This document shows, in pieces, positions 2,275 to 7,940 of a DNA stretch of 64,000 nucleotides. The number at the start of each line of letters is the position of its first letter. Position 1 is the first letter of the stretch. The stretch lies in NCBI GenBank assembly GCA_963668625.2, contig CAXXKA010000006.1, positions 576,001 through 640,000 on the forward strand. The letters run 5' to 3'. The position numbers and the translations under genes were made by a program. The DNA comes from an uncultured candidate division Zixibacteria bacterium. Lineage in GTDB: Bacteria; Zixibacteria; MSB-5A5; UBA10806; 4484-95. Below the pieces are notes generated by a model. The model searched no databases, had not been told where the DNA came from, and saw nothing but the letters and a program-made list of their open reading frames with translations.

Positions 2275-2790
2275 GTAGGTCAAAACCCCTGCGGTTTTGA
2301 CGCGTGATTGTTTTCTGATACTACTGTCAAACATTCTCACCCTCACTAGGCAAGGGAGGTGGCACCGGAGAGGTAAAAATATTACCCTGTGGTTGGAGTA
2401 CGTCCTCGTGCCCCAACTGGCATTTTAGCGGATGGAAGCTGGCAGACACGGATGTCAGCCAGTCACGGGAAGTTTTTTTCTGCATTTATTGTTCTGCCTT
2501 CTTTGAAACTTATTATATGATTTTACATAGAGGTTATTAGTGTGCCTTAAATAAGGAGTTGTGGCTTTAATAGAAAGAAGCCGTCGGGAAAGGATTCCCA
2601 ACGGCTCATCGAAAAGGAGAAATCGATATAACAATACCAACCGAACAATATCACTTGACATGATACATAGCAGGATTCCCACCACCTCAAGTAAAAACGT
2701 TGGCATATTTCATTTTTCCGTGTTGTCAGGAATCCTTTCCTGACAAAATACTGCATCAATACAGATAGCGGGAAAGGATTCCCACCACCT
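2275..2790. repeat. Cluster of REP-like palindromes
   Basis: GTAG-GTCAAAACC-cctgc-GGTTTTGAC (2275-2301); GTGG-TTGGAGTACG-tcct-CGTGCCCCAA (2389-2416); GCCGTCGGGAA-agga-TTCCCAACGGC (2580-2605); TGTCAGGAA-tcct-TTCCTGACA (2724-2745); GGGAA-agga-TTCCC (2770-2783). Confidence 0.65.
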
Positions 2791-3694: not shown

Positions 3695-4587
3695 GAAGAA
3701 GCTTGATAAAGACAATGGTAGTAGGAATCATCATCTGGGTGGTTTCCGCCTCGTACGGGCATTATGTCACTAAAGCCTCTGTTGGCGTCGATATATTCAA
3801 CGATTTTCAAACCGGTACGTTCGGTTCTATCATAGAGAAACTTTTTCCGGGCAGCCTTGGTATTAAAGCCAAAGCCGTGCTTGTCGTGGATGCCGAGACA
3901 GGGGAGGAGATATATTCGAAAAACGAGGATTACCAGATGCCAATCGCCAGCCTGACCAAGCTTGCCACTGCATTAGTGTTCATGGAATCGGGTACGCCGC
4001 TAACCAACACGATCACGATGAGTGAAGAGGATTTCCCGTCAGTGGGCGGCTCCAAGCTTTACGAGGGGGAACGGATCACGGTTGGCCAATGCCTTCATCT
4101 ATGCCTTATCTGTTCCGATAACGCCGCCGCTAACGCGCTATCTCGATCCGCCGGTATAGAAAAAGGCGAATTCGTGGGCAGGATGAATCAACTGGCAATT
4201 AGGTTGGAGCTATCCAATACCCGCTTTACCGAGCCGACCGGTTTGGATTCGCATAATATGTCAACGCCGGAGGACTATATCAAGCTCATGCAAACCGCTT
4301 TCGCCGAGCCGACAATTCAGAAGATATCCTCGAAGAAGACTTACCAGTTCAGCTCGTTAAACCGTGGGATTCGTCACTCGTTATATAATACCAATCGCTT
4401 GCTTTACACTAAATGGAATGTGATCGGCGGGAAGACAGGGTATATCAGCAAGTCCGGCTACTGCCTGGCCCTGGATGCTTACGATCAAACCGGCAGGCGG
4501 ATTAACGCGGTGATACTCGGCGCGCCTTCGAATCAGTACCGCTACCGGGATGCCAATCGGTTGCTGGCCTATTCCGGGCGGAATTAA
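3691..4587 (+). CDS. Peptidase S11 D-alanyl-D-alanine carboxy/endopeptidase
   Basis: PIASLTK (SxxK), SDN (SxN) and GGKTG motifs; N-terminal signal/anchor. Confidence 0.9.
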   Translation: MRRSLIKTMVVGIIIWVVSASYGHYVTKASVGVDIFNDFQTGTFGSIIEKLFPGSLGIKAKAVLVVDAETGEEIYSKNEDYQMPIASLTKLATALVFMESGTPLTNTITMSEEDFPSVGGSKLYEGERITVGQCLHLCLICSDNAAANALSRSAGIEKGEFVGRMNQLAIRLELSNTRFTEPTGLDSHNMSTPEDYIKLMQTAFAEPTIQKISSKKTYQFSSLNRGIRHSLYNTNRLLYTKWNVIGGKTGYISKSGYCLALDAYDQTGRRINAVILGAPSNQYRYRDANRLLAYSGRN

Positions 4588-4827
4588 TAACTTCATAAAA
4601 CAATATCATATTATCTTTCCCCACGCCAGAGGGGTTGTTGAAAAAGCCGTTTGCATGGGTCGCTGGGCGGACGAAGTCCTTTGTTCATTCTTTCCCGGCG
4701 ACATGCCGCATGAAATCAGGTGTCAGGAAAGTAACTATGTTATCAAAAGCTTGAGCCTCAGTCATTCGGATTGTATTGTTATTTTGACAAACATTCAACA
4801 ATCAACACGAACAAACAGGAGGCTCAA

Positions 4828-5886
4828 ATGCCATGTTACAACAAAATCGAGCGTGAAGCCAACACTATTTACGTTGGTATTGACGTTCATAAGCGGAGTT
4901 GGCATGTAACAATGCGAACAACTGAGCAAGAGTTATGGAAAGGCAGTATTGCAGCTGATTGGGAAGTATTGAAAAAAGTATTGGGGCGTTATTCCGATTG
5001 TGACATTTCGGTAGTTTACGAAGCCGGTTTTAGTGGTTTCTGGTTATATGACAAACTGGTAGCCTGGGGAGCGTCATGTATAGTGACTCCGCCGAGTTTG
5101 ATTCCTTCTGAATACGGCAATCGGGTCAAAACTGATCGCCTCGACAGTGCCAAGCTTGCTTTACTACTTTCCCGTAGTATGCTCAAGGCAGTATGGGTAC
5201 CTGATGTCGAAGCGCGTGGTCATCGCCAGGTATTGCGTCGCCGTCGCCAGTTGGTCAGCGACCGGGTCCGTATTCAATGCCGTATCAAGAGTGAGTTAGC
5301 CTGTTTCGGTCTATCTCTGCCGACAATTAGCGGCAAGTGGACGGAGACATTCGAACAGCATTTATGGCAGTTGCGTTTTAGTGATCGCTGGCAGACAGAG
5401 AGTTTTCAGAGGTTACTGACACAGTATCGGCTGGTGAGTGAATTGATTACTCAACAGACACGGTTATTGAAAGAATTGTCAAAACTGGATCGTTATCGGG
5501 AAGCGGTTGAGCGTCTACGTAGTGTTCCGGGCATCGGCTTGTTAACGGCGATGGAACTATTATTGGAGTTAGGGGACTTCAGCCGATTTAGTCGAGGAAG
5601 CCAATTGGCCGCCTACGTGGGCTTGACTCCAAGCCAATATTCCTCCGGTGACAAGGTTCGACTAGGACGAATCACCAGGATCGGCAAACCGCAGTTACGG
5701 TCGAATCTGATCGAAGCCTCCTGGATTTTGATCAGGAAGGATCCGGCCCAGGCTCAGCGTTATCAACAGCTCAAGTGGCGGTGTGGTTCCAAACGAGCCA
5801 TTGTGGCCAGTGCCCGCCGTCTACTGTTAATCGTACGGCGTCTGATGCTTGACCATCAGAGCTATCGAATCCAAACCGCAGCATAA
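4828..5886 (+). CDS. IS110 family DEDD recombinase/transposase
   Basis: YVGIDVHK, YEAG, KTDRLDS, SVPGIG, AYVGLTP...SSG; ATG 4828 follows AGGAGG. Confidence 0.95.
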   Translation: MPCYNKIEREANTIYVGIDVHKRSWHVTMRTTEQELWKGSIAADWEVLKKVLGRYSDCDISVVYEAGFSGFWLYDKLVAWGASCIVTPPSLIPSEYGNRVKTDRLDSAKLALLLSRSMLKAVWVPDVEARGHRQVLRRRRQLVSDRVRIQCRIKSELACFGLSLPTISGKWTETFEQHLWQLRFSDRWQTESFQRLLTQYRLVSELITQQTRLLKELSKLDRYREAVERLRSVPGIGLLTAMELLLELGDFSRFSRGSQLAAYVGLTPSQYSSGDKVRLGRITRIGKPQLRSNLIEASWILIRKDPAQAQRYQQLKWRCGSKRAIVASARRLLLIVRRLMLDHQSYRIQTAA

Positions 5887-5889
5887 AAA

Positions 5890-6110
5890 AGAGATAATTA
5901 GTTTACAATATCTGAGTTTGGAGAATGGCGAAGGAATCCTTGTGGCTTAACAACAGACCGCGCAGGAAAGGGTGTCATCTCCCCTGGTAATAATCTCGGA
6001 TTGATTAATTGTGGCTGTGTTTGAGGGCCAGACCACGAATAGCAGGGTGACTATTATCGGCAATGTCTAACAGTGGCAGCATGTTGTAGTTTAAACATGG
6101 GTATTCTGCG
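5890..6110 (+). ncRNA. Putative bridge/seek RNA of the first IS110 (ends approximate)
   Basis: Guides AGGAATCCT (5932-5940) and CAGGAAAG (5963-5970) match both target flanks; AATAGCAG (6038-6045) matches the element end. Confidence 0.7.
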
Positions 6111-6287
6111 TTTTATTAAGAAAAGGAGAAATCGATATAACAATACTAACCGAACAATATCACTTGACATGATACATAGCAGGATTCCTGACACCGCGAC
6201 TACCTAATCAGGGCTTTTTCAACAAGCCCCAGAGTTCAGGTTTTTAACCCCTGCTCAAATTAAATAATAACAAAAATAGTAGATAAA

Positions 6288-6310
6288 AAAACGGGCGCTA
6301 AGCCCGTTTT
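6288..6310. terminator. Bidirectional intrinsic terminator
   Basis: AAAACGGGC-gctaa-GCCCGTTTT between convergent genes. Confidence 0.7.
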
Positions 6311-6329
6311 AGTTCAAAGATTTTAGCGA

Positions 6330-7940
6330 TTAGTATAAATATTCGACATTTACGCCTCGCGCCTCGAGCTGCGGGATATAGGTGTCTTCTGAGATGGTAT
6401 CCAGTGGATTACCTGATAGGCCGACCCAATCGCCACTGCCGAGACCTGAGTTGTTTACCAGTGGCAGAATGTTCGTTATTTGATTCCCAAGTAAGGTAAC
6501 ATTAATCACGCCGGTCATAGTTTCTATAGCGCTTATGTCGACTATGTTGTTGTACTGAAGGCTTAGTTCTGTTACGTTTGTCAAATTAGCTATTGCCGAG
6601 ATATCAGTCAGGGAATCGTCAAATGCATACAAATACTGAAGGTCATACAATGAATCCAGACCGTCGAGACTGGTTATCGGATTGCCGTCAACATGCAGCC
6701 TGCTTAGATTCGACATATTGGCCAGAGGTGTTAAATCAGTTATCAGGTTGTCGCTCATAACTAATTCTGTAATATTAGTCAAGCCACCGATAGGGGATAA
6801 GCTGTTTACCTGATTGTTTTCAATATCCAGTCTTGTTACCCAGGTGCAGGTTGAAAGCCCGGAAATATTGGTGATGGCATTATTTGAAAAATCCCAACTG
6901 GTGACCAGAGTCAGATTATCGAGCGCGGGGATTGAGGCAATCTGATTATCTTTTACACTGATAAATTCTATACTACTGAGGTCCTGAATCGGCGAAATGT
7001 CGGCAATCTGGTTTTCGTACATATAGAAAGTACGTAGCTGAGTCAAGCCGCTAATAGCATCAATGTTACTGATCTGATTATCTTGTATCATTAAAACGGT
7101 CAGGTTGGTCATCTCCTCAACAGCCGCAATACTTGTTATCGTGTTGTGGCCTATATCGAGATAGTCCAGGTTTGCCAGATCGTTAAGAGAAGAGATATCG
7201 CTTATTTGATTTTCTTCTAGCTTGAGCTCGGTCAAAGCGGTCAGCCCGGAAAGCGGGGAGACGCTTGAAATTGAGTTGGTGCTCAGATTAAGGGATTCGA
7301 GATTGAACAAACTATCAAGCGGTGACAGGCTCGTGATATGATTATCATAGATGCTCAATTCTTGCAACGATTCGAAATGTTCCAATCCACCAAGGTCGTA
7401 TATATCGTAGAAATTATCAACGGTAAGTTCGGTGATCGTGTCGACATCCGTGACATAGATAGAATCGTAATAACTCCGACCGTCAATTTGATTGGCCACC
7501 ACTTTCTTGAGATTGGTATCGGCGAACGCCACGTAAGTGCTGTCGAAACTGCGGGTGGAGAATCTCCACATCGTGCCTTCGGTACTATTGCCGTGAATGT
7601 CATGAGGGTCTACCAACCAGTAGTACGTAGTACCGTATTCCAACTGAGTCTGGTAATTAAAGAAAGTGTCTGACATGCTAAAGCGAATATAATGATTCTC
7701 GATTGAGGCCGAATCGGTAGAAAGCGCGAAGTCGTATAGAATATTATCACCATCGGGATCCGAACAGCTCCAATTGAATTGGATCGATAAAAGTTGATTT
7801 GCCGCGCCATCAGCGGGCACAGGGGAGGAGGCCGCGGTCGGCGGATCATTCTCCTCGGATGTATCCGTGCTACTGCTATCACAGTTAATCATCGTTAAGC
7901 ATAAACATAGCAAAAGAGCAATGAAATATTTCATTTTCAA
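6330..7940 (-). CDS. Leucine-rich repeat (internalin-like) lipoprotein
   Basis: Signal ending MINC followed by a Ser/Thr linker, an FN3-like segment (TTYYW), then many LxxLxLxxNxIxxIxxL repeats. Confidence 0.85.
   Translation of the reverse strand: MKMKYFIALLLCLCLTMINCDSSSTDTSEENDPPTAASSPVPADGAANQLLSIQFNWSCSDPDGDNILYDFALSTDSASIENHYIRFSMSDTFFNYQTQLEYGTTYYWLVDPHDIHGNSTEGTMWRFSTRSFDSTYVAFADTNLKKVVANQIDGRSYYDSIYVTDVDTITELTVDNFYDIYDLGGLEHFESLQELSIYDNHITSLSPLDSLFNLESLNLSTNSISSVSPLSGLTALTELKLEENQISDISSLNDLANLDYLDIGHNTITSIAAVEEMTNLTVLMIQDNQISNIDAISGLTQLRTFYMYENQIADISPIQDLSSIEFISVKDNQIASIPALDNLTLVTSWDFSNNAITNISGLSTCTWVTRLDIENNQVNSLSPIGGLTNITELVMSDNLITDLTPLANMSNLSRLHVDGNPITSLDGLDSLYDLQYLYAFDDSLTDISAIANLTNVTELSLQYNNIVDISAIETMTGVINVTLLGNQITNILPLVNNSGLGSGDWVGLSGNPLDTISEDTYIPQLEARGVNVEYLY

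Follow-up and report, generated by a model that had tools for sequence, protein, structure and literature searches.

An IS1111-type insertion sequence from an uncultured Zixibacteria bacterium with a predicted guide RNA for insertion into REP-like hairpins

The window analyzed here, a stretch of 64,000 nucleotides from an uncultured candidate division Zixibacteria bacterium (contig CAXXKA010000006.1 of assembly GCA_963668625.2), carries at 4732–6182 what is very probably an intact, recently active insertion sequence (IS) of the IS1111 group, IS110 family, with a bridge (or seek) RNA that would guide its insertion into the loop of a repetitive extragenic palindrome (REP). An IS1111-type element had originally been predicted at 4730–6182, and all of the coordinates given for it held when positions 4500–6400 were read again. 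The assignment to the IS1111 group rests on the subterminal inverted repeats, the downstream non-coding region and the GL-P----SG motif of the recombinase. This anatomy is as expected for an IS1111-group element of the type described in 2024, and it is not a new kind of system. The principal parts are the following.

4732–6182, plus strand: the whole IS of 1451 bp, with the right AG core counted in; the flanks of five copies diverge exactly at these ends, and uninterrupted paralogous hairpins exist
4730–4731, plus strand: left AG core dinucleotide (crossover site), the sole sequence common to both junctions, in five of five copies
6181–6182, plus strand: right AG core, from reading of the junction and comparison of the five copies
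4828–5886, plus strand: transposase/recombinase gene for 352 amino acids, the sole long open reading frame of the IS, with its ATG 8 nt past AGGAGG

The left junction reads GTGTCAGGAA-AG/TAACTATG and the right junction CATAGC-AG/GATTCCTGACAC, where the slash marks the edge of the element; one copy of AG is the target's and the other is the element's own. Removal of the IS together with one AG restores CAGGAA-AG-GATTCCT, the empty site reconstructed earlier, within the palindrome formed by GTGTCAGGAA and TTCCTGACAC. The restored site, GTGTCAGGAA-AGGA-TTCCTGACAC, is a 10-bp hairpin with a 4-nt loop, and the insertion splits this loop mid-way.

The genome to which the window belongs (G000; 10 contigs, 4.30 Mb) was searched for further copies. 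Five full-length copies were found, with identity printed as 100% (2617 bits in four and 2613 in one), along with one 63-bp right-end fragment. The five insertion sites, each with the point of insertion at the slash, are:

site a: ggtggCAGGAAAG / GATTTTTGCCACC
site b: gtgtCAGGAAAG / GATTCCTGACAC
site c: gccggCAGGAAAG / GATTCCTTCCGGC
site d: aatttCCGAAAG / GATTCCTGCCATG
site e: gcAGGAAGAAAG / GATTCCTACCACC

All five conform to xxGAAAG/GATTxxT and lie in the loop of a REP-like hairpin. The consensus of insertion sites had been proposed as a check, with copies at unrelated sequences speaking against the prediction, and every copy was found at a site of this kind. In three of the five copies the left flank together with the core reads CAGGAAAG, and in four the right flank is GATTCCT; ..GAAAG and GATT.. 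flank all of them, without target duplication beyond the shared AG. Site-specific insertion is directly supported by these junctions. In nine genomes of the same family the IS was not found at a scan threshold of E <= 1e-60. Five copies printed as 100% identical at five REPs, taken with the lack of a match in these nine genomes, point to a recent spread with the present RNA, and the element is evidently intact and, on this reckoning, recently active. Contigs from three runs of a single sample showed no circle junction, no empty allele and no joints; the loose contig ends at 4729/4731 belong to paralogous REP copies with two other letters, and the IS unitig stops at 6177 because the 63-bp fragment, located at 2611–2673, has the same last k-mers.

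The non-coding sequence of the IS amounts to 296 nt downstream of the recombinase gene versus 96 nt upstream. The 296-nt right end holds two tandem internal-loop modules of one design, consisting of an outer stem, a 5' loop strand, an inner stem-loop ending ..CG, a 3' loop strand ending with the core AG, and the closing strand of the outer stem. The first of them is the putative target-binding module.

5920–5982, plus strand: target-binding module, outer stem 5920–5930 paired with 5973–5982
5931–5941, plus strand: target 5' loop, the top-strand guide, AAGGAATCCTT
5942–5962, plus strand: target inner stem-loop, with GTGG at 5942–5945 and CCGC at 5958–5961
5963–5972, plus strand: target 3' loop, the bottom-strand guide, CAGGAAAGGG

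The last ten bases of the 5' loop strand, AGGAATCCTT (5932–5941), are exactly complementary to A+AG+GATTCCT on the top strand, and the first nine bases of the 3' loop strand, CAGGAAAGG (5963–5971), equal CAGGAA+AG+G, that is, the left flank, the core and one further base. The target guides first reported, AGGAATCCT (5932–5940) and CAGGAAAG (5963–5970) around the GTGG/CCGC stem, are therefore confirmed, and each match is one base longer than had been stated. No match to the target site longer than 7 nt was found anywhere in the rest of the IS. Of 200,000 mononucleotide shuffles of the 296-nt end, 4 contained both a top-identical match of at least 9 and a complementary match of at least 10, each spanning the core, and 46 contained both at the lengths first reported (8 and 9). 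The top-strand match stands 5' of the bottom-strand match, which is the order given for the seekRNAs of ISEc11, ISPa11 and ISKpn4 in the portion of PMC11187229 cited here.

The strongest evidence for the role of these loops comes from relatives of the element. A scan of the genome collection returned 76 loci, of which seven (L007–L013) encode proteins 52–77% identical to the recombinase; the 69 at <=46% identity were left out. A phylum scan over 285 genomes, with a match at E <= 1e-60 in 15 counting G000, added L093, L095, L096, L097 and L099 as well as a five-copy element of genome G103 (L094, L106, L109, L111 and L113). We thus analyzed 13 distinct relatives with transposases 52–77% identical. 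The truncated locus L114 was left out of this set, and L102, L103 and L107 (38–41% identity) were tried and dropped, as the end and guide motifs sought in them by regular expressions were not found. The relatives occur once each in their own genomes (twice in one metagenome-assembled genome), and only the G103 element has five copies, so that a site consensus is absent for the relatives other than the G103 element.

The same RNA scaffold is present in 13 of 13 distinct relatives. For 19 hand-set pairs in the 14 sequences, 97.7% of positions were paired versus 84.1% in column shuffles and at most 54% when the partner was slid; changes on both sides were seen in 10 of the 19 pairs, and the covariation score of 0.466, versus 0.183, was reached by none of 500 shuffles. 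RNAalifold, applied to the first eight sequences, returned 23 pairs, 13 of them compensatory, and in the target outer stem compensatory changes affect eight of ten pairs. The two target loop strands vary between elements, each matching the flanks of its own element. Covariation of guide and target was assessed in the 12 elements with both flanks, one site each, which excludes L010 and L097 with their incomplete flanks. Guides paired with their cognate targets at 129 of 168 positions outside the core; with the guides shuffled among targets the mean was 68.6 and the maximum 108, and 129 was not reached in 20,000 shuffles. For example, the reverse-complemented guide of L013, AGACCTGACAA, compares with the flank AGACCTGACAC, and its second guide, TGGGCAAG, matches GGGCAAG. 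In the five-copy G103 element, AGCGGGTGGGT corresponds to AGCGGGTGGGC and TCCGCAAG to CCGCAAG at each of its five sites, L096 has the guide AGCTGTGGGTA against the flank AGCTGTGGGGT, and L095 has AGACCCAGCAA against AGACCCAGCGG. The first loop base is mismatched in most of the relatives' target loops. Such covariation of loop and target is, in our reading of the alignments, the natural equivalent of insertion-site and reprogramming tests.

The second module is the putative donor-binding module.

5984–6060, plus strand: donor-binding module, outer stem about 5984–5995 paired with 6049–6060
5996–6010, plus strand: donor 5' loop, ending TTAATT
6011–6037, plus strand: donor inner stem-loop, with compensatory changes in two of five pairs
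6038–6045, plus strand: donor 3' guide AATAGCAG, which starts the 3' loop and equals the right end, (C)ATAGC+AG

The donor 3' guide had been reported to match the donor end at seven of eight positions, and it does so, the first loop base being unpaired. It is invariant in all 14 elements, and the right ends read ACATAGC(A/G)G in all 13 elements for which a right end was available. The donor 3' guide and the target 3' guide are equally distant from their inner stems, and the minimum free energy (MFE) fold of the non-coding end forms the donor outer stem. The earlier description of the left donor guide as only partly matching is accurate: at most the core plus TAA of the left end is paired by the donor 5' strand, with one mismatch in the window IS. 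Across the elements this strand can pair with AG+TAA if a single C is bulged out or if the register is shifted by one base. The 5' strand ends with TTACCT or TTGCCT in eight elements, with TTACT-T in L007, TAACT-T/G in L013, L011 and L099, TTACA-T in L010 and TTAAT-T in the window IS. A short, discontiguous second donor guide is also described for IS621, where nine RNA bases pair seven donor bases (PMC11208160, in the part cited here). Neither a longer donor 5' guide nor pairing of its loop with the subterminal repeats was found by eye. As a separate observation, in L093–L097 and L012 the donor outer-stem 3' strand, located just 3' of AATAGCAG, reads ACTGGTT(C/A/T)G(A/G)(A/G)T(C/T)C, which is missing from the window IS; this stretch presumably resembles a tRNA T-arm sequence.

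The ends of the element are likewise conserved among the relatives.

4735–4745, plus strand: left subterminal inverted repeat CTATGTTATCA, set 3 nt inside the left end and containing TATGTT
6170–6179, plus strand: right subterminal inverted repeat TGATACATAG, 1 nt from the right end excluding the core
6164–6169, plus strand: outward-facing −35-like TTGACA, 13 nt from the right end
4736–4741, plus strand: −10-like TATGTT, 4 nt (TAAC) from the left end
6132–6154, plus strand: right arm of an inner inverted repeat with its partner at 4765–4787; 23 nt, 83% complementary, the longest inverted pair of the IS

The left repeat, CTATG(T)TATCA, and the reverse-complemented right end, CTATG-TATCA, can be aligned with a single 1-nt gap. 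By global alignment the subterminal repeat pattern, with co-varying distal bases, was seen in 12 of 13 elements; the repeat of L013 was read by eye. Subterminal inverted repeats of 7–17 bp are given for the IS1111 group in the cited parts of PMC11208160 and PMC11187229. Joined ends would give TTGACA-17 nt-TATGTT (13 nt of the right end plus TAAC), with the spacing that the original prediction had put forward for circularization. Both halves are conserved, with the TTG of the −35 half standing at one offset in all 13 available right ends (TTGACA, TTGACT, TTGATT or TTGCTT), and junction promoters are documented for the family in the cited section of PMC12288879. Inner repeats comparable to that of the window IS are present in relatives. 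Its left arm (4765–4787) falls inside the hairpin of the 5' untranslated region (UTR) described below, and in the short relatives L095–L097 the right arm overlaps the donor outer-stem 3' strand. The inner repeat could be a second protein-binding repeat or could serve long-range RNA pairing.

From these parts, and by analogy with the published systems, the following mechanism can be proposed. The IS encodes a DEDD/serine recombinase, and its right non-coding end would encode a bridge (seek) RNA of about 140 nt (5920–6060) with two internal-loop modules, to which the recombinase would bind. Through its two target guides together, the RNA would steer the IS to the AGGA loop of a REP-like hairpin. 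In the donor loop, the 5' segment (TTAAT; TTAC(C)T in relatives) would pair with the core and TAA of the left end, and the loop would recognize the junction of right and left ends (RE-LE) in the excised circle. Formation of the circle would assemble the TTGACA-17-TATGTT promoter, from which the recombinase gene and, by read-through, the RNA would be transcribed, and strands would be exchanged at AG. Since no promoter for the RNA was found in the linear IS, we infer that the RNA would be processed from a read-through transcript, a route already suggested in the literature. The motif TACAAT at 5903–5908 was considered by eye as a promoter for the RNA and was rejected, as it is without a −35 element and is not conserved in relatives.

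Could the guide-like matches instead be a captured or degenerate REP copy in the right end, or a by-product of the palindromic target, and not functional guides? The target is near-palindromic and the two matches are consequently not fully independent. When the criterion was relaxed so that any 8-mer from the 26-nt palindromic site counted, both strands were matched in 372 of 20,000 shuffles, because the site is palindromic, and it is for this reason that the requirement for core-spanning matches, reached at the observed length in only the 4 of 200,000 shuffles given above, is important. The two guide segments also pair with each other in the MFE fold. However, a conserved stem-loop lies between them and a co-varying stem encloses both, and in relatives whose targets are unrelated and not REP-like, the sequence of the relative's own target stands at identical scaffold positions. 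We regard this explanation as highly improbable. Equally improbable in our view is that the protein picks its target through the structure of the REP hairpin, in the manner of REP-associated or IS200/IS605-type enzymes, with the RNA having no role. All targets of the clade do lie in or next to hairpins, but at least six target sequences are found among transposases that are 52–77% identical, and the targets track the RNA loops and not the protein; the published mechanism of the family, as set out in the cited parts of PMC11187229 and PMC11208160, is also RNA-guided.

Hardly more probable is an IS of this kind that is immobile, with its donor 5' guide mismatched at the core and its target guide out of register. 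Among the 14 elements, the window IS is alone in placing an A opposite the core G in its donor loop, and alone in ending its target 5' loop with TT rather than CT. Against this, the five copies printed as 100% identical all have the same guide bases and are inserted at five different REPs, which together with the lack of a match at E <= 1e-60 in the nine same-family genomes points to recent spread.

An intact, recently active IS guided by a bridge RNA remains the reading that we favor, and the findings that weigh against it are these. The public runs listed for this DNA include no RNA run. A promoter scan returned no sigma-70-like plus-strand promoter in the linear IS. Single-sequence folds of the non-coding end were no more stable than those of shuffles (z = +0.35 and +0.21), and the MFE fold pairs both target guides with one another; single-sequence folds are uninformative in this case, and only the comparative analysis told anything. 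No Rfam family reached threshold within the IS, the best matches being at chance level and outside it. The cognate fit of guide and target is poor in L093 (3+3 of 14), L007 (5+4) and L009 (5+5), and the right flank of L093 fits only when the CAG repeat at the junction is skipped. The relatives are kin with targets common within sub-clades, and the independent retargeting events therefore number about six or seven, not 12. The donor 5' guide of the window IS has the A opposite the core G, or three contiguous pairs in the other register, and in L011, L013 and L099 this guide does not follow the change of the left end from TAAC to TCAC. Lastly, the target 5' loop of the window IS ends CTT before the inner stem, versus CT in the other 13 scaffolds, where this CT pairs with the core AG.

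The CTT ending has a consequence of its own. It displaces the top-strand guide by 1 nt, so that the two guides overlap on AAGG and not on the two-base core. A one-base register alternative also exists in the donor loops of 5 of the 14 elements. If the pairing is real, the slip would be tolerated, since five near-identical copies all cross at AG despite the displaced guide. It is conceivable, though we consider it rather unlikely, that in an IS1111-type scaffold one of the guides may slip by one base, in which case the position of the cut would be determined by the bottom-strand guide together with the donor loop. If true, such a rule for the cut position, drawing on the bottom-strand guide and donor loop and not on both target guides, is one not stated in the portions of the cited papers used here. 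Apart from this register slip, we regard the window IS as textbook in all its features.

The recombinase contains both IS110-family domains, in agreement with the family to which it had been assigned: PF01548 with 59.7 bits (cut-off 29) at residues 16–157, and the C-terminal domain PF02371, with the conserved serine, with 95.5 bits. It matches the NCBIfam model NF033542, 'IS110 family RNA-guided transposase', with 238 bits (cut-off 140). Its C-terminal domain, and this domain only, aligns to the solved ISCro4 and IS621 recombinases (E about 5e-9); the segment GLTPSQYSSG aligns with GLTPRRYESG of ISCro4 and forms the GL-P----SG motif as G265-L-T-P-S-Q-Y-S-S273-G274. For IS1111 transposases, the cited part of PMC11187229 gives a GL-P----S(t)G motif and a length of about 330–350 amino acids, a range that the 352 residues of the present protein exceed by two. 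A tblastn search of plasmids returned no close characterized relative, the best plasmid-borne IS110-family proteins being <40% identical. Residues 189–333 also match NCBIfam NF052498, 'TIGR-Tas system RNA-guided endonuclease', weakly and below threshold (32.9 bits, cut-off 100), which reflects the shared C-terminal fold of RNA-guided systems. Upstream of the gene lies one further structured feature.

4749–4831, plus strand: 5' UTR hairpin, in which TTGAGCCTC (4751–4759) pairs with GAGGCTCAA (4819–4827) and covers the Shine-Dalgarno GGAGG

This hairpin has an MFE of −25.5 kcal/mol (z = −3.95), an equally good fold was obtained in none of 200 shuffles, and both of its strands are conserved in all relatives read. 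It probably restrains translation of the recombinase.

The sequence that the IS targets belongs to a true repeat family, of the ordinary REP kind. The 12-mer GGAAAGGATTCC occurs unoccupied 39 times in the genome versus about 0.5 expected, and the full 15-mer target 12 times versus 0.01 expected. The site and an unoccupied copy in the window are as follows.

target site, written as halves around the core: GTCAGGAA-AG-GATTCCTGAC
2724–2745, minus strand: unoccupied target hairpin, an uninterrupted copy reading GTCAGGAAAGGATTCCTGAC on the minus strand

The latter had already been pointed out as an intact unused target; it lies on the strand opposite to that of the IS. Among copies of the hairpin the apex is conserved and the base of the stem co-varies (gtgtca/tgacac, gccgtcg/caacggc, gcaggaa/ttcctgc), and copies frequently form inverted pairs, for example 2724–2745 with 2771–2784. 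Outside the window, a frame for a Y1-transposase (PF01797, 37.4 bits) was noted at G000:C8:173880–174068, amid a cluster of REP hairpins at 173331–174354, with hairpins of the gccgtcgGGAAAGGATTCCcaacggc type on both of its sides; seven further Y1_Tnp matches, six of them above cut-off, are present in the genome. This frame is a candidate REP-associated tyrosine transposase (RAYT) for the targeted REP family, and the presence of a RAYT-like frame within a cluster of target hairpins makes the name REP apt.

The solitary 63-bp copy of the right end (2611–2673) is 98% identical to the IS and ends CATAGCAG/GATTCCC at a REP half-site. One arm of the inner repeat is retained in it, along with the −35 box and the subterminal repeat, and the RNA modules are missing. 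Its left edge lies away from a REP loop, and for this reason it looks like a deletion remnant. Direct repeats are found nearby, at 2475–2550 and 2816–2891 (76 nt, 91%) and at 2672–2718 and 2775–2821 (47 nt, 98%). The repeats at 2475–2891 enclose the right-end fragment together with three REP hairpins and lie just upstream of a gene starting at 2906, an arrangement that suggests a rearrangement or duplication tied to an earlier insertion. On the other side of the IS, a terminator-like bidirectional hairpin (AAAACGGGC..GCCCGTTTT) is located at 6288–6310, between the IS-bearing REP and a convergent leucine-rich-repeat gene (6330–7940, minus strand).

As predicted here, the present element contributes a further RNA-guided recombinase of the IS1111 type, intact and evidently active, from an uncultured lineage. 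It opens no new question, since the mechanism, the targeting of REPs and the junction promoter are already published. Together with its relatives, it does provide a ready-made natural series of about 13 elements with one RNA scaffold and six or seven target specificities. Such a series should help to find the programmable positions of the IS1111 scaffold, among them the lengths of the guides (10 nt and 7 nt), the first base of the loop and the register slip of one base.

Several characterized systems can be compared with the window IS, in each case through their published descriptions. The bridge RNA of IS621 (IS110 group; structures 8wt6-9; Durrant et al. 2024, PMC11208160) has a target loop and a donor loop, each with two guides that include the core, and a short discontiguous second donor guide, as is predicted for the RNA of the window IS; IS621 also has a promoter rebuilt across the RE-LE junction, as the window IS would, and a DEDD and serine recombinase. 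In contrast to IS621, whose RNA lies upstream of the gene, the RNA of the window IS would lie downstream, the order of guides within the loops is reversed, the subterminal repeats are long, and the two proteins align in the C-terminal domain only.

Like the window IS, ISPpu9 and ISPpu10 of Pseudomonas putida (PMC12288879) belong to the IS110 family, insert into REPs and cross over at AG. Translation of their transposase is inhibited by a structured 5' UTR, and the 5' UTR hairpin of the window IS resembles this leader as described for ISPpu9. ISPpu10 has a junction promoter; ISPpu9, unlike the window IS, belongs to the IS110 group and is described there as having neither end repeats nor a hybrid promoter. 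No separate mobile small-RNA module was found for the window IS, as the search of the genome for copies returned only the five full ones and the 63-bp end fragment.

There is also a likeness in layout to ISPa11 of the IS1111 family, which has a 96-nt seekRNA and inserts into REPs of Pseudomonas aeruginosa (Siddiquee et al. 2024, PMC11187229). In both elements the recombinase gene is followed by the longer non-coding region, the top-strand match stands 5' of the bottom-strand match with the two overlapping at the insertion point, the target is a REP hairpin, subterminal inverted repeats are present, and there is no duplication beyond the shared core. The two differ in host phylum and in REP sequence, as compared through the published description of ISPa11. 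The relatives of the window IS recall the natural re-direction seen between ISEc11 and ISXne4 in the same source, where related elements share a conserved stem and have loop strands that differ in keeping with their different targets; compared with that pair, the present series comprises 13 relatives and roughly six or seven target classes, known from sequence.

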